64,000 bases of DNA from Candidatus Hodarchaeota archaeon (GTDB lineage: Archaea > Asgardarchaeota > Heimdallarchaeia > Hodarchaeales > Hodarchaeaceae): assembly GCA_016840035.1 (NCBI GenBank), contig JAEOTC010000076.1:9419-73418 (forward strand). Reading direction: 5' to 3'. Below the pieces are notes generated by a model. That model was not told where the DNA came from. It saw nothing but the letters and a program-made list of their open reading frames with translations, and did not search any database. Shown here piece after piece: positions 1,741 through 29,529 of this stretch. Every line of letters starts with the position of its first letter. Within the stretch, counting starts at the first letter, position 1. A program made the position numbers and the translations under genes.

Positions 1741-2484
1741 ATGCAAGAGGAAAAAGTTCCGATGAACGAAGGCAATGAAGACAAAAAACCCTCTCTCGAC
1801 CTTGATGAAAAAGATATTATCATCAATGATTTACGTGAAGAAATTGAGCGCATGAAAAACAAATCACAATCAAAACTCAATGAAGCTTTTGGTGATTCTA
1901 CTAATCTTGAAAAACAACTACAAGAAAGTCAAGATGTTCTCTGTAATGTCAAATCTGATCTTCAAACGGAGAAGGCAAAATCTGAAGTTTTAATTGCCGA
2001 GAAAGCAGATTTAGAAAAACAAATCGAAGAAATGACTGCGATTATTAATCAGAAAGAATCAACCGATGAGTCCTATCTCCAGCAAATTGCTAAAATGCAA
2101 CAACTGCTTCAAGATACGGAACAGGAGATAGAGAGCATCGAAGCCGGTCATATAGCTATCCAAAATCAGCTTCAAGAGGAAATAAAACGAACTGAAGATC
2201 GATATGGGCAAGTGAGTGAAGATTTGACTCGAGAATCATCTAGTACACACGCACAAGACATTCTCATTCGTACGGTTCTCCAGGAGACTGAACTAGGTAA
2301 AATTACAATGTTCATTGTAGATTATTTTGAAAATCCAAAGAGAAAAGTTCTTGCAAGAGAAACGATAGCCACAGAGTTACAAATTGCCCCAATAATAATC
2401 CGATCTCATCTTAGATTGCTACATGGGTTAGGTGTTTTAGCATTCAACGAAGTTAGTGGGGAAGTAAAACTCGTTAGACAATAA
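1741..2484 (+). CDS. Coiled-coil protein with C-terminal winged-helix-like domain, function unknown
   Basis: About 180 aa of E/Q/K-rich heptad-like sequence, followed by ..ARETIATELQIAPIIIRSHLRLLHGLGVLAFNEVSGEVKLV (HTH plus wing pattern). Confidence 0.6.
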   Translation: MQEEKVPMNEGNEDKKPSLDLDEKDIIINDLREEIERMKNKSQSKLNEAFGDSTNLEKQLQESQDVLCNVKSDLQTEKAKSEVLIAEKADLEKQIEEMTAIINQKESTDESYLQQIAKMQQLLQDTEQEIESIEAGHIAIQNQLQEEIKRTEDRYGQVSEDLTRESSSTHAQDILIRTVLQETELGKITMFIVDYFENPKRKVLARETIATELQIAPIIIRSHLRLLHGLGVLAFNEVSGEVKLVRQ

Positions 2485-2624
2485 TATCCGAGTTGTTTAT
2501 TTTCCTTTTTCATCCATTCATATTTTACTCATTAGGAGAATTACATGAAGAAAATATTACTATACAGCGAGATAAAAAATAATTTTCTCCACCCAAACTA
2601 ATTCGAATGAATTTGTTCCATGAT

Positions 2625-2972
2625 TTACTTTTTGGTAGAAGAATCAAGACGGATGGAATACACGCCATTATTTCCTGCTACCACGGGAGACTTTTCTTTC
2701 TTAGTTTTTCGTTTTAACAAGGTGTCTACGTTAATATCGTAAATCCCAATTTGCCTCTCTCTGATGGTGAGGAACTCCATATCTTCTTTTGAATACAGCG
2801 TTTTATCAGGAGTAAGTGAAGAAACCTTGGGTGTTTCGGGTTGCATTCGTAACCGAAAGAGTCGATGACCACAGGTACAACCAGTGAAGAGCTCATTCGC
2901 TTTTTCTGGAGTCCGATCGCATTTTGCGCATCGATACCGCGTTAAATTAACCTCTCCACTAGTTAAACTCAT
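2625..2972 (-). CDS. Zn-ribbon protein (COG3364/DUF2072-like), third gene of a GTPase triad
   Basis: CAKCDR..(13 aa)..CTCGH zinc ribbon near the N-terminus. It lies directly downstream of the DUF2073-like gene on the same strand. Confidence 0.65.
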   Translation of the reverse strand: MSLTSGEVNLTRYRCAKCDRTPEKANELFTGCTCGHRLFRLRMQPETPKVSSLTPDKTLYSKEDMEFLTIRERQIGIYDINVDTLLKRKTKKEKSPVVAGNNGVYSIRLDSSTKK

Positions 2973-2987
2973 TTATCCACCTTCAAA

Positions 2988-3350
2988 TTAGACAAGAGCA
3001 ATTGATAAGTGTTCATAATTATGGGGAGCAACGACAGTCATCTTGACGTTTTTGTGACTAAATAGGCCTTCTCTCATTCTAAGGGGTGCAGGATTCAGAA
3101 TTTTATATCCCAAGAACTCTTGATGATCGATTTGAGTCATAGCTTCTTCTATTAAGGCTGCTTCTTCTTCAGGACTCAAACCGCCTTCAATTATTACAGC
3201 TGCTTCTTCTTTTAGCTTTGAAATGATGAAGTCACATTTTTGGGTGGAGTTCATCTTCCGTGTGGTGTTTTCTGTCACGAAATTGATACGTAAGTCCACT
3301 TTTTGCACCTCACATTCCTGAAACCGATAGGATACTTCCATACAATTCAT
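2988..3350 (-). CDS. DUF2073-like archaeal protein
   Basis: Core ..KLKEEAAVIIEGGLSPEEEAALIEEAMTQIDHQEFLGYKI.. matches my memory of the DUF2073 pattern (LExGLxPeEExxLIexTM). The start is uncertain: ATG 3350/3341, or GTG 3308 one nt after the GTPase stop. Confidence 0.6.
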   Translation of the reverse strand: MNCMEVSYRFQECEVQKVDLRINFVTENTTRKMNSTQKCDFIISKLKEEAAVIIEGGLSPEEEAALIEEAMTQIDHQEFLGYKILNPAPLRMREGLFSHKNVKMTVVAPHNYEHLSIALV

Positions 3351-3993
3351 TCATTCCTGATCCGTCTTTTGCAGAGATTGGGATAATATCACTCTGAAAA
3401 GTTTCTTTGACAAGTTCTGGATCAGCATCAGCTAAATCAGATTTATTAGCGGCTACGATAATGGGTATCCTTCTAGCTTCAAGATTTCCTATTACTGTCC
3501 AATTTATTTGATCAAATGGGGCACGAGCTGCATCAACAACTACTATGGCTGCATCCATTTTATCTAAGCTTTGAATCGCCTTAATTACTCCACGAGTTGC
3601 TTCTTTTGCTCGTTGAATACTATCTTGTCTTGTTAGTCCGTGTTGTTGAAATTCACGGTAGTCTATTGAGGTAGCAATACCGGGGGTGTCAACAATCGTT
3701 AAATCGAGAGAACCATTCTGGTCACTAATAACACAATGTTCTAGAGCACTGCATTCACGAGTTTCGTGAGGAACAGGGCTTACAACCCCGAGAGGTTCAC
3801 CGTTTCCGCATTCATTTGAGATCCGATTAGCTAAAGTTGTTTTTCCTGCATTAGGTGCTCCTAATATTCCAATTGTAAGTCGACTTTTCCGACTACGGGC
3901 AAATAATCGTGATAAGATACTCAATTTACTATGCCTCCTATTAGGTGTGTAATGATAAACATATTGAGTTAGGTTAGATACTCCCCTTCCCAA
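3310..3993 (-). CDS. Era/EngB-like P-loop GTPase
   Basis: G1 GAPNAGKTT, G3 DTPG, G4 NKSD and G5 SAK all present and in order. Confidence 0.85.
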   Translation of the reverse strand: MGRGVSNLTQYVYHYTPNRRHSKLSILSRLFARSRKSRLTIGILGAPNAGKTTLANRISNECGNGEPLGVVSPVPHETRECSALEHCVISDQNGSLDLTIVDTPGIATSIDYREFQQHGLTRQDSIQRAKEATRGVIKAIQSLDKMDAAIVVVDAARAPFDQINWTVIGNLEARRIPIIVAANKSDLADADPELVKETFQSDIIPISAKDGSGMNELYGSILSVSGM

Positions 3994-4089
3994 TTAATAG
4001 ACAACATATTATGGAGATGTTACACAATTCCGAGAATGAAATTAGATTCTTAACAAGAGGAAGTTAAAATAAGGATCATCGTTCTCTGG

Positions 4090-5448
4090 TTAATCTACCT
4101 TATTAAGCTGTTTTTCTAGATCAAAATCAAGTGGATTACTATAAATGTACTTATGCAATGTTGCTCCGATTATTCTCAGAATTGTGATTAGAAGGAGAAC
4201 CGCTATTAATACTGATTCGAACTCAGGGTCTTTATCTGTGATACTAAAGATTATCAGAAGAATTTCTACTAAAAATCCCGCAGCCAAGGAACCTGTAAAT
4301 GCCAATACTCCCTCTAAAGTTAGTAATATTGAATAATAACGAGCGCGTGTTTCAGCAGTTGAACAATCCAGTGAATAAGAGGAAATTGCGGTATCTTCTG
4401 CACCAAATGCCAATCCACCTGGAATATTGACTAGGAGTAAAAACCACACGTTTCCTGTCACTAATCCAGCGGCATAACCAAAAGGTACGAGTGCATATCC
4501 AAATCGTGAAAAAATGATCACAATTTTCTTTCCATATCGATCTGCAAGAATTCCCCCAACCGATTGCCCAAATCCTCTCGGTAAATTAAAAACAGCCCAT
4601 AAAATTGCTACTACTAGCCATGTATTGGCTAATTTGAGGGTTACATAAGGTAAAAGAGGCCACAACATGCTCATACAAAATTTGAAGAAACTATTAATCG
4701 GGAGTAATCGACGAAATGGTTCATTTCGACGTATTAAGTCTTTTGTGGGAAGATGGAGTTCTTGTTCTATGAAAGTCTTTTTTCGAATGGAATATTTCTC
4801 TTTTAAAAATAATTCACTGACTAAAGCAATTGCAAAAATAACCCCGCCAGTTATAAAGGGTATGAAAAAAACTGGTTTACTTTCTGCATAGAATATCGCT
4901 TCTGATGGGAATGGAAGTGATGTACTGTCCATCCACCAACCTAATCCAAGAATTACAAAAAGAGAACTCCAGGTCCCAATAGAATTGATAAATCCAATAA
5001 ATGAGGCTCGTTTTTCTTCAGAGGTATAATCTCCAAGAAAAGCAATCCATGCTGGAATAAAACTGAATCCTAACGAAGTCATCACCATAGAGATCAAAAC
5101 GAGTTCAAAAGGATTGGTAACAAAAGGAGTAAGAATTATGGTTAAAGCTAATGTTGCTAATCCAATGGTCATGACTAGTTTACGTCCTTTCAAATCAGCA
5201 AGCCACCCCCATATAGATTGAAATAAATTAGATCCTAAATTCCTTACTGATGTCAAAATAGATAGCTCTAAAGGACTTGCTCCAATGACGACTCCGAAAT
5301 ACGAAAGATAAGTAAAAATTGATGATCTTCCAGCCGCCCACGCAATACTTGTTGTGTAGATTGGTATTTTCTCCCTTCTCTCTGATGGTTTTTTTTCTAA
5401 CTCTGAGCTTCCATTTTGTGAGACATTCAAAGCTTTATCGACACTCAT
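4090..5448 (-). CDS. MFS transporter
   Basis: About 12 predicted TM helices. MFS loop motifs LADLKGRKLVM and GGILADRYGKKIVI are present. ATG at 5448 is preferred over the TTG at 5556. Confidence 0.8.
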   Translation of the reverse strand: MSVDKALNVSQNGSSELEKKPSERREKIPIYTTSIAWAAGRSSIFTYLSYFGVVIGASPLELSILTSVRNLGSNLFQSIWGWLADLKGRKLVMTIGLATLALTIILTPFVTNPFELVLISMVMTSLGFSFIPAWIAFLGDYTSEEKRASFIGFINSIGTWSSLFVILGLGWWMDSTSLPFPSEAIFYAESKPVFFIPFITGGVIFAIALVSELFLKEKYSIRKKTFIEQELHLPTKDLIRRNEPFRRLLPINSFFKFCMSMLWPLLPYVTLKLANTWLVVAILWAVFNLPRGFGQSVGGILADRYGKKIVIIFSRFGYALVPFGYAAGLVTGNVWFLLLVNIPGGLAFGAEDTAISSYSLDCSTAETRARYYSILLTLEGVLAFTGSLAAGFLVEILLIIFSITDKDPEFESVLIAVLLLITILRIIGATLHKYIYSNPLDFDLEKQLNKVD

Positions 5449-5615
5449 GAGGTAGAACAAATCCCGTACAGTTATTTTTCCGTGTGTTAATGGAAAATCT
5501 AAATGGAAAATCAAAAACCCAGAACATTTTTTGCAGAAGTCAGAGGGATTAATCAATATTCGTATCTTGACAGATCTTAGTTTCTACAAACAAATTTCTT
5601 TTCGTGGAAATGAGA

Positions 5616-6767
5616 TTATCCATCATGACGTTCAAAAGCAATATCAAATGCTCTTTTGAGCTTTGACGTGAATCCCTCTGGAGAGCATTTTAGAGCAGAA
5701 GTTTTTGCAATTTTACCCATTTTGAGAATCTCAGATGGATTATCTAAGCAGTAAAGGATTGCTTCTTGAAATGCCTCAACATTATTCGACTCCACCAGGA
5801 GGCCATTCTTCTTATGCTCAATGTAATCTTTTACTCCACCCTCATTAACACCAATTACCGGTCGTGATTGGCTCATTGATTCTATTACAGTTAATCCTTG
5901 TGTTTCTGTATCACTAGGAGTTACCATGAACTCTCCGACTTGGTAATAATGCGGAAGTTTTGAATGGGCCACGAATCCTGTAAAGACCACATTTTTCAAA
6001 TCTAGATTTTCTGCTTGCTTCTTATATGCCTTTAGATGAGGTCCATCACCAATGATGAGAAGAGTAACATCTTTGTGGCGCTTCTCGATATCTTTATAGC
6101 CATCAAGGACTATTTCTAGCTTTTTCTCAAAAGAAACTCTACCACAGTAAGTAATAATGCGATTATTCTCAGGAATGGAATACTTTTGTCTTAGAGAGGA
6201 GTCAAATTCTTCTAATTCCGTTTTTGAAATTTTTGCGTTGAAGAATACCTCAGAAATCATATTTGGTAGTGAATAAACGGGTGGTTTCAGTCCATGTGCT
6301 ATAAGATCATGCTGCAATGTTTTTGATGGTGTTACCACTACATCTGATTGGTTGTAGTAGCGATTTATAAACCACCATACGGCTCCCGCAAAACCTTTAC
6401 TAAATTTTTCTGCTTGAAAACCCCCAACCAGATGTCCAGAATACTTTACCAGATCCGTATGATAAGTATTTACGAGAGGACATTTTTTCAACGACTTAGC
6501 AGCGAATAATGCATACCAACCAGCTGAAAAGGGACCATGTGAGTGAATAATATCAAGATCGTACTTCTTCATTGCCCTATTGAATTCTGAATCTATTAAT
6601 GCCAGATTGTACCCTGGATAATTTGGGATGGGAAAACTTCTAATTCTTACGATGGGTACACCCTTCATTTTGTAGGGAGTGCGTTCCTTCAATTTGGGAG
6701 TAACAAGAACGAATTCATGACCTTCCTTACTCAATGTTTTAATCTCATTTATGATTGAGATTGTCAC
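5616..6767 (-). CDS. GT4-family (GT-B) glycosyltransferase; true 5' end probably upstream of 6767
   Basis: C-terminal donor-binding motif ..TETQGLTVIESMSQSRPVIGVNEGGVKDYIEHKKNGLL.. The conserved N-terminal LRIGIFTDTFVPNINGV is encoded upstream of the first canonical start (see findings). Confidence 0.85.
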   Translation of the reverse strand: MTISIINEIKTLSKEGHEFVLVTPKLKERTPYKMKGVPIVRIRSFPIPNYPGYNLALIDSEFNRAMKKYDLDIIHSHGPFSAGWYALFAAKSLKKCPLVNTYHTDLVKYSGHLVGGFQAEKFSKGFAGAVWWFINRYYNQSDVVVTPSKTLQHDLIAHGLKPPVYSLPNMISEVFFNAKISKTELEEFDSSLRQKYSIPENNRIITYCGRVSFEKKLEIVLDGYKDIEKRHKDVTLLIIGDGPHLKAYKKQAENLDLKNVVFTGFVAHSKLPHYYQVGEFMVTPSDTETQGLTVIESMSQSRPVIGVNEGGVKDYIEHKKNGLLVESNNVEAFQEAILYCLDNPSEILKMGKIAKTSALKCSPEGFTSKLKRAFDIAFERHDG

Positions 6768-6969
6768 ACCATTAATATTGGGTACAAATGTGTCAGTAAA
6801 TATGCCTATTCTCAGGAAAATCGCATCCTACACGTTCTTCTTACCGATATACATATGGCCTGGCTTTCGACTCAGATTGTAGTTGACAAATATCACCTAT
6901 ATTATAACATTGGTGAGATAATATCTCAATAATGTATTATTGAAGAATTTATCCTCTTAGAGAAATCGC

Positions 6970-8754
6970 TTAGATATCCTGTCCAGCAAACTGCTTCTCA
7001 TATAAATCGGTAAAAATTCCTCCTTGAGACATTAATTCTTGAAAGTTTCCCATCTCTACGATTTTCCCTTGATCTAAAACAACAATTTTATCAACAAATC
7101 GAATGGTACTCAATCGATGAGCAATTACAAGAGCAGTTCTGTTTTGTAGAATGTTTTTCATACTTTGTTGAATTACAAGCTCGGTATGAGCATCAACGGA
7201 GGATGTAGCTTCATCGAGAATCAGTATCCTTGGATTAGCTAGAAGAGCTCGAGCAAAACATATGAGTTGGCGTTCTCCCATTGATAGTCGAGAACCCCTC
7301 TCTCCAACTTCGAAGTCTAGTCCTTTACTCATTGTGAAGTCATATGCACCTACTTTAAGAAGAGCTCGCTCAATTTCTTCATCAGAAGCGTTAGGATTCC
7401 CATATAGTAGATTATTCTTAATACTGTCACTGAATAAAAAACTATCTTGAGGAATGATAGCAATATTTTGACGATAATTTTCTATATTACATTCTCGTAT
7501 GTCGACATCATCTAGTGTTATAGATCCATCCTCAAAGTCATAGAATCGCAATAACAAACTAGCAAGAGTGGTTTTTCCTGCTCCAGTATGACCTACTAGT
7601 GCAAAAGTCTGTTGAGGAGGAATCAAAAGAGAAAAATCTGTTAAGACTGGTTCTGAGGTCGATAGATATCGAAAGGTTACATTCTCAAATTCCAGTTTAC
7701 CTGAAACCTCTGATAGAAACTTATTATCTCTGGAAATTACTTGAGGTTTACTATCTAAAATATCAAAGATTCTCTCTATAGCAGCCATAGAACTTAATAA
7801 ATTATTATAAAAGTTTGATAACACCATGATTGGTGTTGATAATCGTGTAATATACGATAGGAAAGCAACCAACGTTCCTGGAGATATCAATTCCTGACCC
7901 ACAGAATATCCGCCTACAGAAAGAACCAAGGCTGTTCCTATTGTTAATAATAAATCCATGAGAGGGAACATTATTGCAAAAAGGATTAATGCACGAATTC
8001 GTGCCTGGTAATTATCAAGATTAAGTGTATTAAATTCATCAGTGACAAAGTCTTCGGCTGAAAGGGCTTTCGTGACAGTTATTCCACTTATCGCCTCTTG
8101 ATAATAACCTGTTACTTTTGCTAATGTGCGTCTTGTCCGTTGCCATGCAGCTCTTGATTTAATTCGGAAATAAACAATTGCCACCGCAAGGAAGGGGAAA
8201 AATACGATGACAGTTAAGGTTAAAGCAACATCGAGTGAAAACAGGATAACAAACAAGAATCCTAGAAACATGAAATTTACAACGGCATCAATTATCCCAG
8301 TAGAAAGTAAATTTAGTAATCTCTCGACATCATTAGTCACCCTAGACACGATACGTCCAGTTGCTTCTTTGTCATAGTAATCCATACTGAGCTCTTGTAA
8401 TTGGTAAAAGGCTTCTTCACGAATCTGTGTAATTATCTTTAATCCTGTTATGGTAGTGATATAACTCGTAATTACGGCCAACAAAAATGAAAATACGGTT
8501 ACTGAGAAGTAAATTATGGCAATAGATCCTAACCCCCTTAAATCTGGCACAAGAACGTAATCATCAATAACAGATTTCAATAATAATGGTTGTACGATAG
8601 TCAAGAGTGTAGATAATAGCATACCCACTAATGCAATAGAGAAAATCTTTCGATGGGGCACTGTATACCCGAGTAATCTTTTGAATAACTCAAAATCGGA
8701 ATACTCGTGGTGCAATAAATCTCGTTGATCTTGCCTTTCTGCCATATTATTCAT
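6970..8754 (-). CDS. ABC exporter, fused permease/ATPase half-transporter (type I exporter)
   Basis: Six-TM N-terminal domain. Walker A GHTGAGKTT, signature LSMGERQ, Walker B ILILDEATS. Confidence 0.9.
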   Translation of the reverse strand: MNNMAERQDQRDLLHHEYSDFELFKRLLGYTVPHRKIFSIALVGMLLSTLLTIVQPLLLKSVIDDYVLVPDLRGLGSIAIIYFSVTVFSFLLAVITSYITTITGLKIITQIREEAFYQLQELSMDYYDKEATGRIVSRVTNDVERLLNLLSTGIIDAVVNFMFLGFLFVILFSLDVALTLTVIVFFPFLAVAIVYFRIKSRAAWQRTRRTLAKVTGYYQEAISGITVTKALSAEDFVTDEFNTLNLDNYQARIRALILFAIMFPLMDLLLTIGTALVLSVGGYSVGQELISPGTLVAFLSYITRLSTPIMVLSNFYNNLLSSMAAIERIFDILDSKPQVISRDNKFLSEVSGKLEFENVTFRYLSTSEPVLTDFSLLIPPQQTFALVGHTGAGKTTLASLLLRFYDFEDGSITLDDVDIRECNIENYRQNIAIIPQDSFLFSDSIKNNLLYGNPNASDEEIERALLKVGAYDFTMSKGLDFEVGERGSRLSMGERQLICFARALLANPRILILDEATSSVDAHTELVIQQSMKNILQNRTALVIAHRLSTIRFVDKIVVLDQGKIVEMGNFQELMSQGGIFTDLYEKQFAGQDI

Positions 8755-17023: not shown

Positions 17024-17494
17024 TTACGATTCTGGTCTTAGTCGTTTGGAAAAGTAGCAGACTTCTTCCCAGTTTTCATATCCATTACTCTCAAAACAAT
17101 GCTTACTCGTAATATTATCCTTAAAAATCAATGCACCAAAGACTTCGATCCTTTTTTCGGTAAGTAGATATTCCTCTGCAGCTAATAACAATTCTTTCCC
17201 TATCCCCTGGTTTTGATCAGCTGGATTTACGGCTAATCTATTAATCCAGCCTTTACGTTCATCGTGAGATACTAATACGACACCTATCAAACGATTATTC
17301 TCATACTTTCCAAGTAATATTACATTCCCAGTCTTTAATTGGTCTTTCATGAGATCAGGATGATCACGTCCATCCACCCGGGGATTCAATCCGACTTTTT
17401 CCCATAATTCTAGCACATCAGAATAATGAGCGAGTGAAAGTTTCTGAATCACGTAATCCGCCTTCTGTACTATATTTCTTTGAAAGAATTCCAT
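17024..17494 (-). CDS. GNAT N-acetyltransferase
   Basis: Acetyl-CoA-binding motif RLAVNPADQNQGIGKELL. Confidence 0.85.
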   Translation of the reverse strand: MEFFQRNIVQKADYVIQKLSLAHYSDVLELWEKVGLNPRVDGRDHPDLMKDQLKTGNVILLGKYENNRLIGVVLVSHDERKGWINRLAVNPADQNQGIGKELLLAAEEYLLTEKRIEVFGALIFKDNITSKHCFESNGYENWEEVCYFSKRLRPES

Positions 17495-18264
17495 TTAGAC
17501 ATAAAATCGGTAGCTTTTTCCAGATCAATAGGTGAATGTAGATTTGAAGTGTCGTATTTTAAGGAACTTCCTATAATTACACCTGAAATATGAGGAAATA
17601 CTGTATCAACATTTTCTACAGTTACCCCGCTTCCTAGTATTGGTTTATACTTGGTTTTGTCCACGAATTGGGTCAATGAATCGAGTGAAAGAAGTGATCC
17701 AGTTTCTCTTCCAGACAATATAACAGCATCAGCACCTCCGCGGGATAACGCGTTTCTTGTAGCTTCCTCTAAAGAGAATTGGCCTAGTGGAGTAGCGTGT
17801 TTTACTCCAACATCTGCTAATATGAGCACCCCAGAGTTAAGTAACTGTTTTTCACGAACCACTTCTTCAGCTAATCCCTCAATAATTCCCTGATCAGTGA
17901 CATAAGCTCCTTCCCAGATATTACAGCGTATAAAACTCGCAGAATTCATAGTTGCGATAGTTAATGCTTGTAAACAAGCATTTCGAAGGATATTCACCCC
18001 AACAGCGATTGCAGGTACCGCATCAATTATTTTAGTGACGATTTTACTCATTAATAGGAATTTAGAATCAGAAATTCGTGTTTTAGCAAAAGGGATGTCA
18101 TGAAAATTTTCTATAAGTATGGCATCAAATCCTGCCTGCTTCAAAGTAAGTGCATCCGCAAGACTGATACTGAAGGCTTCATCAAATTTGAAATCAGGAG
18201 AATAAGAACTTTCAAAGGAAGGAAGATGTATCATTCCAATTGCTGGTTTAGCTTCAAGATCCAA
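17470..18264 (-). CDS. BtpA/SgcQ-family TIM-barrel protein
   Basis: IGMIHLPS.. and ..ILIENFHDIPF.. match the BtpA family pattern as I remember it. Confidence 0.75.
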   Translation of the reverse strand: MDLEAKPAIGMIHLPSFESSYSPDFKFDEAFSISLADALTLKQAGFDAILIENFHDIPFAKTRISDSKFLLMSKIVTKIIDAVPAIAVGVNILRNACLQALTIATMNSASFIRCNIWEGAYVTDQGIIEGLAEEVVREKQLLNSGVLILADVGVKHATPLGQFSLEEATRNALSRGGADAVILSGRETGSLLSLDSLTQFVDKTKYKPILGSGVTVENVDTVFPHISGVIIGSSLKYDTSNLHSPIDLEKATDFMSKWNSFKEI

Positions 18265-18408
18265 TGGATGGTTAGGTACTGGTAATCACTTCACTTCCAA
18301 AAAATTTTATCATGTGAACAATAGCATAGATATTCTTAAGTTCCCCTCCACTAACAATCCTGCTCGAGAAGTTTAATTTTTCACGAATCATTTCCCTCTT
18401 TTTGAATG

Positions 18409-18475
18409 TGATGACGGTTTTACCGGCTGAACTAAATAGTTTACTATTTAGAGATGATGAGTACTGGCAACCTGA
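18409..18475 (+). ncRNA. Candidate C/D-box sRNA (2'-O-methylation guide) with an internal D'-C' hairpin
   Basis: C box GTGATGA (18409..18415), then 11 nt, then D' CTGA (18427..18430). A 23-nt spacer follows, containing a perfect 9-bp inverted repeat (18432..18440 / 18443..18451). Then C' (A)TGATGA (18454..18460), 11 nt, and D CTGA (18472..18475). A TATA-like TTTAATTTTT sits at 18373..18382, about 27 nt upstream. Confidence 0.55.
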
Positions 18476-18493
18476 TCATATAGATGAAATTAA

Positions 18494-19423
18494 ATGAGTA
18501 CATGTAATTGTGGATCCATGGCAGTATATTTTGACCCGTTCAATCCTTATTCTCGCCACTTTTGTTCCTCTTGTTTTGTCAAATATATTGAGAGTAAAGT
18601 ATTAAAAAGAGTGCCCCGTAAAGTCCGTGGCCATCCAATTGCTGTTGCAGTCTCGGGAGGAAAAGATAGTCTAGCACTGCTTAATGTTTTATACACCTAT
18701 CGAAGTGAGATGAAAATTCCTTCGATAAGTGTATTCATTCTTGAAGAAGAAATCCCAGAAATTCACCAAGAAAGGCAGTTAATGCTTGAGTTTATCCATA
18801 AAAAATATCCAGATCTTCCGGTCCATTATGTAAAATACTCAGATATCTATGATTACAACCTTCCAGATCTCGTAAATCTGAATGATGTAAAAGGTCTCGG
18901 TTATACCCCATGTACTATCTGTGGAATCCTTCGTAAACACGCTCTTTTCAATCTAGGAATTCAATTTGGAGTTGATTTTATCGCTCTCGGCACAACACTA
19001 GAGGATGAGACTGCTACATCGATATTGAATATTATTCGAGGAATTTCGCTTCAAAGAAATAAACAAAGTTCACAACTGGAAGAGAAACCCACACAAAAAC
19101 TTCCTCAACGCATTAAACCTTTAGTCCGTGTATCAGAAGATCTGATTAATGAGTATATTCGGATTATGGATATCCCCATAATTTCAAGCTCTTGCCCATA
19201 TGCAGATCGGTCTTTAAGATCAGACATATCATCATTCATTTCAAAATTAAAAACTCGCGATCCCCAAGGATCATTTCTTTATAATATCCTGAAAACTAGA
19301 TATCGCTTCACAAAAACCGACAATCAAAGACAAATTTATCCCTGTAATCGGTGCCAGATGGTCTCCCACCAAGTTCTTTGTCCAAGTTGCACTATAATAT
19401 CAAAATTAGAAGACTCGAGCTGA
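18494..19423 (+). CDS. TtuA/Ncs6-type PP-loop tRNA 2-thiolation enzyme
   Basis: PP-loop SGGKDS. N- and C-terminal zinc fingers (CNCG..CSSC; CNRC..CPSC). Internal CTIC..C cysteines typical of the Fe-S TtuA/Ncs6 group. Confidence 0.85.
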   Translation: MSTCNCGSMAVYFDPFNPYSRHFCSSCFVKYIESKVLKRVPRKVRGHPIAVAVSGGKDSLALLNVLYTYRSEMKIPSISVFILEEEIPEIHQERQLMLEFIHKKYPDLPVHYVKYSDIYDYNLPDLVNLNDVKGLGYTPCTICGILRKHALFNLGIQFGVDFIALGTTLEDETATSILNIIRGISLQRNKQSSQLEEKPTQKLPQRIKPLVRVSEDLINEYIRIMDIPIISSSCPYADRSLRSDISSFISKLKTRDPQGSFLYNILKTRYRFTKTDNQRQIYPCNRCQMVSHQVLCPSCTIISKLEDSS

Positions 19424-19540
19424 TATTCTTCTTACCGATACAGAATTTATTTTAGAGAGGGGGTGCAAATCTATATTAGCGGGATTTTTCGTTACAGAAT
19501 CATACAACTTCAATTAAATTATCCTTTAATCGAACAATAA

Positions 19541-21427
19541 ATGGTAAAATCTATGCAAGAACAGCTCTTTTTAGATTTAAGAAAAGCCATAGCCAATAGG
19601 AATATACACCGGGTTAACGACATACAAAAGAAACTTCTATCACTAGATTCTGACCAAAAAGATGAGGATTTGTTTTGGAAACTTCGCATAGAAGCAGAAA
19701 TCCATCATTTCAGACGAAATTATTCCCAAGCAATTTCAATTCTTGAAGAAGCTCAAAATCTGCAAGTGAATCTTTCATTGACTGACAATCAGCTTAGTAG
19801 TCTAAGAGGTAGATATGCCTCCTGTTTATATTCAATAGAAAACTATGAAAAAGCTCACGAGGAGTTTTCCAAAGCCAAAGATTTGAGTGGCCACGATATT
19901 CCAAGATCTTTCTATTACAGATTAAGGATACTTCAATGCTTGCTTAAATTAGATAGAAAATCAGATTATTTTACCTATTATTTTGAGATAATTGAATGTT
20001 TCTTTACTAATCCGTTAGAAAAAGTGTGGAATCACCACTTAGATTATGCTTGGAATCTGATTTCAAGTATCCAGACGAGTAACTGGTTTGGAGAAATCAA
20101 AAAGCTCACATTTGAATATTCCCCTGACAAAACAGAGAATTATACCTCATCACTTTTATATTTTCTTTTTGCCCTTCTCTCCCGGTCTGAAAGCAAATAT
20201 GATGAGATGATCACACATATGAACTCTAGTCTTGCAGCTTTCAGGGAGGGATGGAACGTTAATGATCATAAAAACCTATTACTTAATTGTGCAAATCTTG
20301 TTAGATACCCGTTCAGTGATTTCGCTACCGCTCAAACATTGTTGGAAAAGGCGTTGGCTTTAAGTCCTGATCCTGATGGGTGGAGAGCACAAATTTTAAA
20401 TTCCTTAGGGTCTGTCTCACGATTTACAGGAAATTATCCTCGGGCTATTCAGGTTCTCGAGGAATCTATTGATATTAGTAGGAAATTTCCTTACTTATAT
20501 CAATTAGGATTCGCATATAACACATTGGGAATGGTTTATACACTCTTAGGAGAAAACTTCAAGGCTAAAAAAGCTTTCGAATCAAGTCTTGATTGTAATA
20601 TCAAAGAAAACAATTTCACTGGGCAGGGATATACATTTGGATCAATGGGATGGCTTGAATCTGTGCTGAATAACTTTAAATCAGCTAATGTGTACTATTC
20701 CAAGAGTATAGATGCGTTTGAGAAGTTTGGGAACACACCCCCGATCATTCTTCTCGCAAAAGCGGAAGTCTTATCTCAAATTCATAATTTCATGACTCCT
20801 GATATAGAGAAGTTGCTAAAAAACGCACATGAGCTAATTTGGAAACGTAAAACACGATTAGATAAAGGCAGATACTATATCACATTAGGACATATCTATT
20901 TCAACTTCAAGGATTACTCTAGAGCTGAAGAAAATTATTTAGAATCGCTAATATTTGATGATATTTACGAAGTTTATTCTCAAGGTCTTTTAGGCATAAT
21001 AAAGGTAAAAACATTTCTTTATATCGAATCTGATGACATCAATTTCATGAACCAAGTTAAAACAAGACTATCAAGCCTCAACTCTCTAACTCAAGAGAAT
21101 TCATTGTTGTGGGCAGAGATGAATTTAATTTCATCAATTATTGATATATCGGAAGGAAAATTTGGACAAGCTACCAACAATTTAAAATTATTACGTACTT
21201 ATTCAGAGAATCATGGATTGATCGGGCTTCAATCCCGAATATTAAAGCAAGAAGACTACCTAGCTATATATCAGAAGTACGTACAAATTCAGGATCAAAT
21301 TCAGGATCAATCAGAGATAGAAGATGCAAAATCACAGTCCTTAATGGATGTATTGGATTACTTAAAGGCAATTTCACGCCTATTGACTACTCATTCGACT
21401 GACACCAAGTCTAAAGACCCTAAATGA
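19541..21427 (+). CDS. TPR-repeat protein
   Basis: Many 34-aa A/Y/L-patterned helical repeats (e.g. YNTLGMVYTLLGENFKAKKAFESSL). Confidence 0.75.
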   Translation: MVKSMQEQLFLDLRKAIANRNIHRVNDIQKKLLSLDSDQKDEDLFWKLRIEAEIHHFRRNYSQAISILEEAQNLQVNLSLTDNQLSSLRGRYASCLYSIENYEKAHEEFSKAKDLSGHDIPRSFYYRLRILQCLLKLDRKSDYFTYYFEIIECFFTNPLEKVWNHHLDYAWNLISSIQTSNWFGEIKKLTFEYSPDKTENYTSSLLYFLFALLSRSESKYDEMITHMNSSLAAFREGWNVNDHKNLLLNCANLVRYPFSDFATAQTLLEKALALSPDPDGWRAQILNSLGSVSRFTGNYPRAIQVLEESIDISRKFPYLYQLGFAYNTLGMVYTLLGENFKAKKAFESSLDCNIKENNFTGQGYTFGSMGWLESVLNNFKSANVYYSKSIDAFEKFGNTPPIILLAKAEVLSQIHNFMTPDIEKLLKNAHELIWKRKTRLDKGRYYITLGHIYFNFKDYSRAEENYLESLIFDDIYEVYSQGLLGIIKVKTFLYIESDDINFMNQVKTRLSSLNSLTQENSLLWAEMNLISSIIDISEGKFGQATNNLKLLRTYSENHGLIGLQSRILKQEDYLAIYQKYVQIQDQIQDQSEIEDAKSQSLMDVLDYLKAISRLLTTHSTDTKSKDPK

Positions 21428-21888
21428 TCCTGGGTCCTCCCTCCCCAGAGTCCCTATTTGACTCCCAGGCACACCACTCTTCTCATGTTTCCATGAAATT
21501 CATTCTACTATTGCCAAATGTAGTAGAAAGTCATTAATCGTTAATATTATTGTATCGAGTTTATCTACCGTGGTCGTATATCTTCTTTCTAGGCTTCTTT
21601 CGAACCAGAGAAGATAACCACCAAACTTTAGATGGTAATCTAATATATCTTTTGGTAGTTTTTATACTCCTTAAAAAAAAAGACTATTAATTCGTGTACA
21701 GTATAATAAACACTTAATTATGGCCAATCCTCCCTATTCAATAACAGATTTTTAATCTAAGCACAATTTATGTGATTTAAACAGATTTTTGTAGTTAGAT
21801 AGTCTGATCTCATCAGAAAATGATTGATCAAGTAACCACAAAATTGAAGATTGCATCCTATCAATATTGAGAATAAGAGGTAAAACAG

Positions 21889-23040
21889 TTGAAATCATAT
21901 ATTCGAGACCATTTTCCAGTAGTAGATAAGGCCGTTTATCTCAATCACGCTGCTATCGGCCCTTCACCGAATCCTGTAACACAAGAGGTTCAAAAATGGA
22001 TGGTACATCACAAATCTTATGGTGATATGTATTTCTCGCCTTTAAACAAAATGTATGAAGATATAAATAAAGACCGTGATGTTCTGGGAAGACTAATCAA
22101 TGCAAAATTTCCTAGAGATGAGATATCATTTACTTATAATACGAGTTATGGGTTAGCTGCAATAGCTGAGGCAATTCCCTGGAAGAAGGGAGATTCTATT
22201 ATTCTGAATTATTTGGAATATACATCAAATTCTTATACGTACCAAGCTTTAGCTCGTAAATTCGATCTCAAAGTAAAGACAATACCTCACATAAATGGGG
22301 TTTTACCCTTAGAAAAATTTCAAGCAGCTTTAGATCACACAACTAGGTTAGTGGCAATCTCACATGTTCAGTTTAGCAATGGTTTTCGTATTGATCTTGA
22401 GGAATTGGCTAATCTTGTGCATGAAGTAGGAGGAGAAATAATCGTTGATGGTATTCAGTCTTTGGGAGCAGTTCCTCTGGATGTTCAAAAGACTAATATT
22501 GATTATTTGGCTGCAGGAGGATATAAATGGTTATTGGCCCCGATGGGAACTGGATTTCTCTATGTTCGCAAGGATTTAACAGACACTTTGCAACCCTCTT
22601 TTATTGGGAGTATGTCAGATTCTTCCCCAATGAACCTATCGCATCACTACTATAGACCTGGCCCTTCTGCCAAGCGTTTTCAAGCTTCTCTAGGTCCTAA
22701 TTCATATCTTCTTTCTGTAGCTGTAAAATTTCTTCTAGATATCGGCATTGAGAATATATTTAAGCATCTACTAAACTTAACCAATATTATTATCGATTTC
22801 GTTGCAGACTCTCCCAATTTTGACTTAAATTCTCCCGTGGCCGAGATTAAACAAAGAAGTGGAATTATTAATTTTTCATGTCCTAACGCAGAGAAGATTG
22901 TGACTCAATTACGAAAGTTAGACAAACCCATCGCGGTCTCATACCGTGAAAATGGTATTAGGGTTTCCCCACACTGTTACAATACAGAAGAAGAGGTTCA
23001 AAGTTCTCTAGAAACTATTAAGAAATTAAGTTCCTCATAA
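21889..23040 (+). CDS. Class V PLP-dependent aminotransferase / cysteine-desulfurase-like
   Basis: ..VYLNHAAIGP.. N-terminus and ..AAGGYKWLLAPMGTGFLY.. (PLP-Lys region). TTG start is preceded by GAGGT. Confidence 0.85.
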   Translation: MKSYIRDHFPVVDKAVYLNHAAIGPSPNPVTQEVQKWMVHHKSYGDMYFSPLNKMYEDINKDRDVLGRLINAKFPRDEISFTYNTSYGLAAIAEAIPWKKGDSIILNYLEYTSNSYTYQALARKFDLKVKTIPHINGVLPLEKFQAALDHTTRLVAISHVQFSNGFRIDLEELANLVHEVGGEIIVDGIQSLGAVPLDVQKTNIDYLAAGGYKWLLAPMGTGFLYVRKDLTDTLQPSFIGSMSDSSPMNLSHHYYRPGPSAKRFQASLGPNSYLLSVAVKFLLDIGIENIFKHLLNLTNIIIDFVADSPNFDLNSPVAEIKQRSGIINFSCPNAEKIVTQLRKLDKPIAVSYRENGIRVSPHCYNTEEEVQSSLETIKKLSSS

Positions 23041-28719: not shown

Positions 28720-28968
28720 AAAACAAGGGAAAAAACATCTATTTCAGTATCAGTCTGTTTTGGTCAGGAATACGAATTTGTATTTATTTCAGTTACCTTA
28801 TATTTGAAAGAATTTATGAGATTAAATTGTATTCTATCATCATACGATATTTTAAGATTAACAAGTAAAGAAATGGGGATTAAAAGTATCTTCATCCTAC
28901 CATGCCTCCAAGTATAAAACTTAAAAATGTCGAACTCGGATAAGAACGCAAGTTTTAGGCGGAAAATC

Positions 28969-29529
28969 ATGACAAATAAAGAAATTAAGCATGTATTAAA
29001 AATACTCTTACTTGGGGACGGAGCTGTAGGTAAAACTTCGTTAATTTTGAGATTTATAGAAAATAAATTCAAGGATGAATATTCAGTTAGCTTAGGCGTT
29101 GATTTTCTAACTAAAACAATTGAATTCATTGATGAAGATGATATTAAGCGAACTGTTTCTCTACAGGTCTGGGATATCGCAGGACAGGCCCGACATGTCT
29201 CCTATTCACATCTATATTTGAAAGGGGCATTAGGTGCTTTCTATGTATTTGATTTAACAAGAAAGGAGACTCTCGCCCATATTCAGAATCGTTGGCAACT
29301 TCAGGCTCTCAAAGCATCGCCCAACCATCTTGGAATCCTTATTGGAAATAAGGCTGACCTAGTTAAGGAACGAGATATTCCAAAAACACAATTAAAGAAA
29401 ATAATTGATAGTATGCACGTCTTTGATTTCATTGAGACCTCCGCGAAGACCGGCAGGAACGTTAACAAGGCTTTCCGAGTGTTAACCACAGAAATCCTTA
29501 ACGTAAAACCAAAAAAATTCCTGAAGTGA
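28969..29529 (+). CDS. Rab/Ras-like small GTPase
   Basis: G1 GDGAVGKTS; switch I YSVSLGVDF (Rab-like TIGVDF); G3 WDIAGQ; G4 GNKADL; G5 ETSAKTG. No C-terminal Cys prenylation motif; the tail is basic (KPKKFLK). Confidence 0.9.
   Translation: MTNKEIKHVLKILLLGDGAVGKTSLILRFIENKFKDEYSVSLGVDFLTKTIEFIDEDDIKRTVSLQVWDIAGQARHVSYSHLYLKGALGAFYVFDLTRKETLAHIQNRWQLQALKASPNHLGILIGNKADLVKERDIPKTQLKKIIDSMHVFDFIETSAKTGRNVNKAFRVLTTEILNVKPKKFLK

Follow-up and report, generated by a model that had tools for sequence, protein, structure and literature searches.

A box C/D guide small RNA (sRNA) of a new family is quite probably encoded in the DNA of an Asgard archaeon analysed here, a stretch of 64,000 nucleotides (the window, contig JAEOTC010000076.1 of Candidatus Hodarchaeota archaeon). 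The element lies directly upstream of a gene for a PP-loop transfer RNA (tRNA) thiolase. In the reading that we favor it is a bona fide guide sRNA, it forms the leader of the thiolase messenger RNA (mRNA), and its D' guide is directed at U531 of 16S ribosomal RNA (rRNA; E. coli numbering). A sequence-only reading of the window had proposed a C/D-box sRNA at this place, and the proposal is supported by the conservation of boxes and guides, by a covarying internal helix, and by a 10-bp match to 16S rRNA. To date, the family appears to be limited to Asgard archaea of the Heimdall and Hermod types.

Box arrangement, conservation and internal helix

Direct reading of positions 18100–18700 gives the following order on the plus strand. 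Box C, GTGATGA (GUGAUGA in the RNA), occupies 18408–18414 and is followed by the first spacer, the D' guide CGGTTTTACCGG (18415–18426; 12 nt with four T's; CGGUUUUACCGG as RNA), and by box D', CTGA (18427–18430; CUGA). The two arms of a perfect 9-bp inverted repeat, CTAAATAGT (18432–18440) and ACTATTTAG (18443–18451), then enclose a loop of tt; as RNA this is the D'-C' helix CUAAAUAGU/ACUAUUUAG with a UU loop (18432–18451), within a D' to C' interval of 23 nt. Box C', ATGATGA (18454–18460; AUGAUGA), the second spacer or D guide GTACTGGCAAC (18461–18471; 11 nt; GUACUGGCAAC as RNA), and box D, CTGA (18472–18475; CUGA), complete the element. The sequence-only reading had given the same box order and the same hairpin. 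It had also counted 11 nt in both spacers, which is correct for the second one and not for the first, from which one T had been dropped.

A regular-expression scan of both strands for RTGATGA-N10-13-CTGA finds just two copies in the 64-kb window, and both belong to the element, lying on the same strand 23 nt apart. Dinucleotide-preserving shuffles contain 0.52 such half-units per window and the tandem arrangement in 0 of 300, so the earlier judgment that the tandem is unlikely by chance holds. A looser scan that allowed degenerate boxes revealed no other convincing C/D unit in the window, the covariance model described below finds a single copy of the element there, and the G+C content is approximately 36% along the whole window. 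No Rfam family was detected in the window at the gathering thresholds, and no tRNA gene was detected by ARAGORN in the window or in the related loci.

Twelve related loci with upstream DNA were examined, representing 11 distinct sequences and including a Hermodarchaeota locus, with protein identity down to 39–46%. The element is located between the BtpA gene and the thiolase gene in all 12, and a further contig (L087) starts inside the element and retains its 3' half. The relative with a 61%-identical thiolase has a 90% cluster in common with a protein of Candidatus Heimdallarchaeota archaeon B3_Heim, and the locus with a 39%-identical thiolase belongs to a Hermodarchaeota metagenome-assembled genome (MAG). 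The window is accordingly assigned to a Heimdall-type Asgard archaeon, and the Asgard origin that the sequence-only reading had considered is borne out. A covariance model was built from seven sequences, leaving out L083, L001, L241, and L242/L243. It scores the 12 related loci at 52–105 bits (E 1e-10 to 1e-24) and recovers the loci outside the model-building set at 52–99 bits. Among the matches listed, 79 other thiolase loci from Bathyarchaeia, Nitrososphaeria, methanogens, Thermoplasmata, and bacteria gave no credible match to the model.

Conservation within the family is a mosaic. The GA of all four boxes and the cores of both guides are invariant, and the hairpin arms, the flanks, and the outer spacer positions vary. 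The invariant cores comprise 10 nt of the first spacer (GGTTTTACCG, or GGUUUUACCG in the RNA, 18416–18425) and 7 nt of the second (ACTGGCA, or ACUGGCA in the RNA, 18463–18469) in all loci; guide length is 12 nt for D' and 10–11 nt for D. In box C the invariant GA (positions 3–4) is seen in all 11 distinct homologues and U5 is replaced by C in L083 and L001, box D' reads CCGA, AAGA, or UGGA in relatives, and the outer positions of box C' are degenerate in L085 and L089. Some of the changes come in partners: in L083 the U5 to C change of box C is paired with U2 to C in box D (CCGA), which are both partners of the 3b-3n pair, and in L085 and L089 boxes C' (GUGAAAU or GUGAUCU) and D' (AAGA) degenerate together outside the GA core. 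As judged from the aligned sequences, this conservation pattern is typical of a guide RNA. The check named by the sequence-only reading, whether the boxes and both guides persist in the orthologous spacer, was run and gave a positive answer in every relative examined.

The D'-C' hairpin differs in sequence by lineage while its geometry stays the same, with the arm pairs CTAAATAGT/ACTATTTAG, TCCTTATTA/TAATAAGGA, TCCTACAAT/ATTGTAGGG, TCCGTGCGA/TCGCGTGGA, and GCTGAACAAT/ATTGCTTAGC. Compensatory changes on both sides occur in eight of the ten modelled pairs and 91.6% of the cells are paired; neither the covariation score nor the paired fraction was reached by any of 500 column shuffles, and when the partners were slid by 1–3 columns as a control only 28–43% remained paired. 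The alignment was fitted to the structure, which somewhat favors the helix, and the compensatory changes are still plain in the raw sequences. Several of the pairs are G-U, and therefore it is the plus-strand RNA that has the helix, which is not a symmetric site in the DNA.

In the more distant homologues the helix directly adjoins box D' at its 3' end and stops exactly three nucleotides (A-A/G-U) before the GA of box C'. This spacing is the geometry of a kink-turn, namely a canonical stem, a 3-nt bulge, and tandem sheared G-A pairs. In the window group (the window, L081, L082, L086, and L242) an A-A mismatch is found at the base of the stem (A18431/A18452), together with a 3-nt bulge G18453-A18454-U18455. 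The usual archaeal D'-C' loop is approximately 3–9 nt long. Since every homologue has a covarying helix of 9–10 bp, the predicted internal C'/D' motif is a full kink-turn closed by a stem, not the usual archaeal kink-loop (K-loop), and the resemblance of the internal stem to the layout of eukaryotic small nucleolar RNAs (snoRNAs), which the sequence-only reading had pointed out, is borne out by the covariation.

At the other end, terminal stems of 4–6 bp with differing sequences are found in L088, L085/L089, L083, and L241 (TTACGA/TCGTAA, ACGA/TCGT, AAGG/CCTT, TATGG/CCATA), each with a 3-nt bulge before the GA. Overall 62% of the terminal-stem cells are paired, compensatory changes occur in two of four pairs, and the window group has at most 3 bp. 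In the window itself the best candidate is TGA/TCA, in agreement with the earlier remark that no terminal stem is evident there; it is the more distant homologues that have one. For the naked RNA the minimum-free-energy fold lacks significance (z = -1.66) and pairs box C with the 3' flank, through 7 bp between AUGUGAU (18406–18412, overlapping box C) and AUCAUAU (18477–18483). Such a fold is uninformative for a ribonucleoprotein (RNP), and the box C/3'-flank pairing could be of importance, as an alternative to the kink-turn, until proteins bind.

Guide complementarity to ribosomal RNA

The core of the D' guide is complementary to CGGUAAAACC, which is like the universal 530 loop of 16S rRNA (GCGGUAAnACC) provided that position 534 is A. 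The evidence that it is A comes from heim1-526, a probe for fluorescence in situ hybridization with catalyzed reporter deposition (CARD-FISH) against the Heimdallarchaeia lineage heimdall1, which includes MAG AB_125; the probe reads CACTCGCAGAGCTGGTTTTACCG (PMC7392546). It matches 95.5% of 107 heimdall1 16S sequences, and according to the competitor-probe data its 3' part is shared by Odin, Thor, and some Bathyarchaeia (PMC7392546). The last 10 bases of the probe, at its 3' end, are identical to the invariant D' guide core, and therefore the Heimdall 16S rRNA reads 5'-CGGUAAAACCAGC. With the 16S sequence taken from the probe, each variant of the guide makes 10 contiguous Watson-Crick pairs with C528–C537, and those with U at position 12 add a G-U pair to G527. 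The energy of the duplex lies between -16 and -17 kcal/mol. The guide's positions 1 and 12, which face A538 and G527 outside the Watson-Crick duplex, are exactly the variable ones. Only 0.9% of random 12-mers reach at least 10 contiguous pairs with complete reference archaeal 16S and 23S rRNA.

By the N+5 rule the nucleotide selected is U531, which pairs with A18422, the fifth nucleotide upstream of box D'. The D' guide is thus predicted to direct 2'-O-methylation of a decoding-centre uridine. The position is familiar from eukaryotes. G507 of Dennis et al. (2015) is E. coli G530 (PMC4644070), and so is yeast G577 (PMC4896748), from which it follows that U531 is yeast U578. Yeast Um578 is a decoding-centre modification guided by snR77 and is kept as human Um627 and in Arabidopsis (PMC2794176). 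Helix 18 is also a known hotspot of archaeal sRNA-guided methylation, with sites at A532, A535, and G515 (PMC4644070). For the equivalent of U531 (alignment position 508) the searchable part of the supplement of Dennis et al. holds no entry (PMC4644070), and a cross-kingdom table gives no Pyrococcus abyssi counterpart for the U531-equivalent site (PMC11542601).

Archaeal 16S genes with A534 do exist on metagenome contigs. The pattern CAGCMGCCGCGGTAAAACCG was found in 20 archaeal 16S genes, among them DPANN-like ones and that of a GC-rich thermophile. None of the 20 is attributable to Heimdall; the pattern requires G538 and excludes Heimdall 16S rRNA because the latter has A538. Among viral contigs a 14-mer of the 530-loop variant gave chance matches only, and neither the sRNA pattern nor a 22-mer 16S pattern had a match. 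A string search of the literature for the target sequences of both guides returned unrelated primers only.

The complementarity of a guide to rRNA, which the sequence-only reading had asked for, is therefore found for the D' guide, with 10 bp to a published Heimdallarchaeia 16S sequence, and not for the D guide, whose match is at the random level. The target implied by the D guide is (nn)UGCCAGU(A/U)(C/A/U), and none of the 20 fetched archaeal 16S genes contains it. The sequence-only reading had likened this guide to the small-subunit (SSU) rRNA around position 1110–1120. That resemblance does not hold up: GUUGCCAGC, near 1120, gives at most 8 bp and has C after UGCCAG where all guides require U, which leaves the invariant U unexplained, and the rRNA match belongs to the D' guide at the 530 loop instead. 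Other candidates were rejected as well. The SSU 515 region offers 6–7 bp only, the SSU 5' end CCUGCCAG is unsupported, and in the anticodon loop of tRNA-Gly(GCC) the N+5 position would land on 35 or 36. No conserved cis target for either guide is present within approximately 3 kb of the loci.

Two leads of the D guide are not significant. One is 16S helix 40, where ACUGCCAGUGC occurs in several fetched archaeal 16S genes and would form 7–9 bp with every guide variant, N+5 being C1161; this is also the sequence that we take E. coli 1157–1167 to have, and helix 40 is variable among archaea. The other is the 5' strand of 23S helix 1 in L211, GUGCCAGUUU, with which the L083 guide is matched at 9 of 10 positions. 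L211 itself (metagenome contig Ga0116200_10001977) carries at 1991–6986 an archaeal rRNA operon in the order 16S, tRNA-Ala, and 23S; a gene for RNase P RNA lies downstream of the 23S gene at a distance of only 35 nt. The 530 loop of the 16S gene is the A534/G538 variant, and the 23S helix 1 is GUGUGUGCCAGUUU/AAACUGGCACACAC, of which the 3' strand resembles the D guide of the sRNA family. A further complementarity to the D guide lies in the window, in the leader of the BtpA gene (18276–18285, minus strand), where TTACCAGTAC matches at 9 of 10 positions just past a Shine-Dalgarno-like sequence; it is absent from the relatives and probably due to chance.

Thiolase gene, mRNA leader and the weighing of readings

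The open reading frame downstream of the element (18494–19423, plus strand) encodes a PP-loop tRNA thiolase of the TIGR00269 type (NcsA/Ncs6-like; Pfam PF01171, the name TIGR00269 being taken from the sources), and such a gene is always directly downstream of the element. The N-terminal CxC motif is invariant in an alignment of 14 thiolase homologues, and therefore the ATG at 18494 is the true start. The recorded protein (P0001, 301 amino acids) begins at the second ATG, 18518, and omits the eight residues of 18494–18517 including the CxC motif. The start codon follows box D after 18 nt, and the thiolase mRNA leader (18476–18496) comprises the 3' flank of the sRNA, a Shine-Dalgarno-like GAUGA (18483–18487), and the ATG (18494–18496). 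In the family the Shine-Dalgarno sequence of the thiolase gene, which is GGAGG, GAGG, GGTGA, or GATGA, comes 3–15 nt after box D. No conserved promoter fits between box D and the thiolase gene, and the simplest view of the sRNA is therefore that it makes up the 5' leader of the thiolase mRNA.

A putative promoter is found upstream instead. An A/T-rich TATA-like element lies approximately 25–37 nt upstream of box C in every homologous locus, and in the window group it is preceded by a purine-rich GAAAAG or GAGAAG that is like a B recognition element (BRE). In the window these are GAGAAG (18366–18371) and TTTAATTTTT (18372–18381) on the plus strand, 26–36 nt upstream of box C, and the TATA-like sequence noted by the sequence-only reading is indeed there. 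Because the intergenic DNA is AT-rich we infer this promoter only provisionally, and a sigma-70 promoter scan is unsuited to archaea.

Upstream of the element, on the opposite strand, are the BtpA-family gene and a gene for a GNAT acetyltransferase, and downstream of the thiolase gene are those for a TPR protein and a class-V aminotransferase resembling cysteine desulfurase. The neighborhood is kept in the window (17024–23040), L082, L085, and a JGI (Joint Genome Institute) contig, with the GNAT and BtpA genes on one strand and, on the other, the C/D sRNA, the tRNA thiolase, a TPR-repeat protein of approximately 625 amino acids, and the cysteine-desulfurase-like class-V aminotransferase; such a set of genes may serve as a unit that relays sulfur for the thiolation of tRNA. 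The intergenic DNA contains a second conserved block, ATTCTTAAGTnCCCC(T)C, which is located at 18334–18352, approximately 60 nt upstream of the sRNA, and recurs in L081 (~2853–2870), L082 (~2851–2868), and L086 (~1790–1807). On the minus strand the block reads GGGGAACTTAAGAAT and resembles a BRE/TATA for the divergent BtpA gene, and a conserved Shine-Dalgarno-like block, GGAAGTGA, follows GGGGAACTTAAGAAT at 18288–18300. Farther along, the window encodes a Ras/Roc/Arf-family small GTPase (28927–29529, plus strand; Pfam Ras, E = 1e-40), a typical Asgard eukaryotic-signature protein that is in favor of the assignment of the window to this group.

From these features the following course of events can be proposed. 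Transcription would start from the TATA/BRE promoter of the element, a few nucleotides before box C, and read on into the thiolase gene. Boxes C and D would form a terminal kink-turn, and boxes C' and D' a second, true kink-turn on the covarying 9–10-bp D'-C' helix in place of a K-loop. By analogy with established C/D RNPs, L7Ae, Nop5, and fibrillarin would assemble on both motifs. The 12-nt D' guide would then pair through its 10-nt core with C528–C537 of the 16S rRNA and direct 2'-O-methylation of U531, which corresponds to a methylated position of eukaryotes: Um578 in yeast (snR77), Um627 in humans (SNORD65), and the Arabidopsis equivalent.

Several points weigh against this reading. Expression, RNP binding, and methylation are predictions from sequence. 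The 16S match depends on the probe for heimdall1 (AB_125), from which the B3_Heim-like lineage of the window could differ. The best match of the D guide to two complete reference archaeal rRNA operons is 7 contiguous bp, which is the random level, and the guide is 1 nt shorter in L083 and L001, where the N+5 site would shift. In L085, L089, and L241 boxes C' and D' have degenerated apart from their GA core, and a convincing terminal stem is absent from the window group. No family of Rfam 15 reaches its gathering score (the best is sR21 with 19.1 bits against a threshold of 45), and the element would therefore be a new family within the class; the sub-threshold matches that fall on it number 23, of which 20 are C/D-box families on the plus strand. 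Finally, a strict linkage to the thiolase gene is unusual, since archaeal sRNA genes are generally mobile, and it could point to a role in cis, either instead of or in addition to guiding.

Such a role is the most serious rival, and still an unlikely one. Here the two kink-turns would bind L7Ae, perhaps together with Nop5 and fibrillarin, on the 5' untranslated region of the thiolase mRNA and control its translation or stability, in the manner of the regulation of translation by L7Ae and kink-turns that has been proposed in archaea, the guide-like segments having no function in trans; in a milder version the element would be guide and leader at once. That the element stays with the thiolase gene in 12 of 12 loci, deeply diverged as they are, speaks for it, as do the Shine-Dalgarno sequence 3–15 nt from box D, the 3' strand of the terminal stem abutting the ribosome-binding site, the fact that a separate promoter for the thiolase gene would not fit downstream of the sRNA, and the mRNA leaders with L7Ae-bound kink-turns that are documented (PMC5539422). 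What a purely regulatory leader leaves unexplained is why two single-stranded spacers of guide length should be invariant, and why the D' core should be exactly complementary to the 530 loop with coinciding edges, while a complementary cis site for either spacer is not conserved within approximately 3 kb.

We give very little credence to the idea that the first spacer is a substrate mimic, folding into a small hairpin CGGU-UUU-ACCG with a U-rich loop like the anticodon arm of tRNA-Lys(UUU) to which the thiolase would bind and so repress its own mRNA. From knowledge of the NcsA/Ncs6 family we presume that the enzyme acts on U34 of tRNAs with U-rich anticodons, which would suit the idea, and the spacer is self-complementary in the window group. 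This hairpin potential is nevertheless fully explained by the 16S target being near-palindromic; the outer pair of the 4-bp stem is lost without compensation in L088 and L001 (A-G), the loop has 3–4 nt as against 7 nt in an anticodon loop, and neither the C/D boxes nor the second half of the element are accounted for. Least credible of all is that the palindrome is a transcription-factor site for the divergent BtpA and thiolase genes with fortuitous boxes, or that the motif arose by chance. The element does lie in a 250-bp divergent intergenic region, and the inverted repeat of the window is a perfect AT-rich palindrome, but it is the pairing of the palindrome and not its sequence that is kept, and its G-U pairs become A-C mismatches on the other strand, a pattern of covariation by which a DNA operator is effectively refuted; the boxes, moreover, are conserved and statistically unexpected.

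Significance and comparison with known systems

Individual snoRNA families have not been convincingly traced from eukaryotes into archaea, and Hoeppner and Poole (2012) found weak similarities only (PMC3511168). The guide sRNA proposed here would be a Heimdall-type Asgard guide RNA with a predicted target at a uridine methylated in yeast, plants, and humans and without counterpart in surveyed archaea. Its C'/D' motif would be stem-closed as in eukaryotic snoRNAs, giving a parallel between Asgard archaea and eukaryotes in both target and architecture. What modifications of rRNA and what architectures of guides are older than eukaryogenesis could be tested on this concrete example. As a fixed fusion with a gene for tRNA wobble thiolation it is furthermore a model for an sRNA and an mRNA sharing one transcript. 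Even if the prediction fails, the covariance model is a useful first one for Asgard C/D sRNAs, which Rfam does not cover.

A bolder extension, which we regard as doubtful though slightly less so than a purely regulatory leader, is that the element is the archaeal orthologue of snR77/SNORD65, that Um531, its guide, and the stem-closed C'/D' motif were present in the Asgard ancestor, and that the thiolase mRNA may retain the RNP at its 5' end as a protective "sno-cap." If the orthology is true, the stem-closed layout suits a Snu13-like protein unable to bind K-loops; if the sno-cap is true, it would couple two modifications, the methylation in the decoding centre of 16S rRNA and the thiolation of the wobble base in tRNA. 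Speculatively, one may note that codon-anticodon pairing is monitored by the rRNA at which the guide is aimed, and that the wobble base of the tRNA is modified by the enzyme.

Among archaeal C/D sRNAs the element takes its place by its C/D and C'/D' boxes, its spacers of approximately 12 nt (10–13), its conservation, and the rRNA complementarity of one guide at N+5. It departs from them in the K-loop, a short D'-C' loop without canonical stem, in place of which it has the 23-nt interval with its covarying helix of 9–10 bp; the K-loop is the typical internal structure of an archaeal C/D sRNA (PMC6009581). The closest archaeal parallels are the helix-18 sRNAs Sac sR115, Pca sR28, Tte sR114, and Iho sR21 (PMC4644070), which are likewise double-guide RNAs with spacers of approximately 12 nt and a D' guide pairing with the 530 loop, and presumably share with the element the L7Ae/Nop5/fibrillarin machinery. 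They differ in selecting A535 (D') and G515 (D), whereas the element would select U531 and its D guide has only 6–7 bp at 515, and in having a short D'-C' K-loop where the element has a helix of 9–10 bp.

Two groups of archaeal RNAs resemble the element in their position. Archaeal C/D sRNAs that overlap or abut the 5' ends of protein genes in sense orientation are described by Lui et al. (2018; PMC6009581) and by Tripp et al. (2017), as that work is related in PMC6009581. Like the element, these sRNAs lie directly upstream of or overlapping the start codon, and they are thought to be co-transcribed with the mRNA and then excised. In Pyrobaculum most guides of this kind are without a target in rRNA or tRNA (2 of 17 have one) and sRNA locations are fluid (PMC6009581), unlike the element, whose linkage is kept across class-level divergence and which has one strong rRNA match. 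The L7Ae-bound kink-turn leaders of Daume et al. (2017) also place a kink-turn beside the ribosome-binding site, but these kink-turns come without conserved spacers of guide length (PMC5539422), whereas the element has a complete double-guide C/D layout.

In eukaryotes, an internal stem joining D' and C' was reportedly described for snoRNAs by Kiss-Laszlo et al. in 1998. The element shares its predicted target with snR77, SNORD65 (HBII-135), and AtsnoR77Y, since yeast Um578, human Um627, and Arabidopsis Um580/582 all correspond to E. coli U531. HBII-135 (RF00571) and snR77 (RF01181), of clan CL00057, are in the table of conserved C/D target sites that Hoeppner and Poole examined for ancestry in the last eukaryotic common ancestor (PMC3511168). 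Neither RF01181 nor RF00571 matches the 83-nt element even at E up to 10, and a likeness in sequence is not detectable either. The guides differ opposite position 534, which is A in Heimdall and U in eukaryotes, and so does the genomic setting, which is an mRNA leader for the element and a polycistron or an intron for snR77/SNORD65. Shared ancestry and convergence on a conserved site would both give this likeness, and from the likeness of the site the two are indistinguishable. We therefore do not file the element as a member of the clan, and describe it as an RNA predicted to work like snR77 and SNORD65 at the level of the site that it would select.

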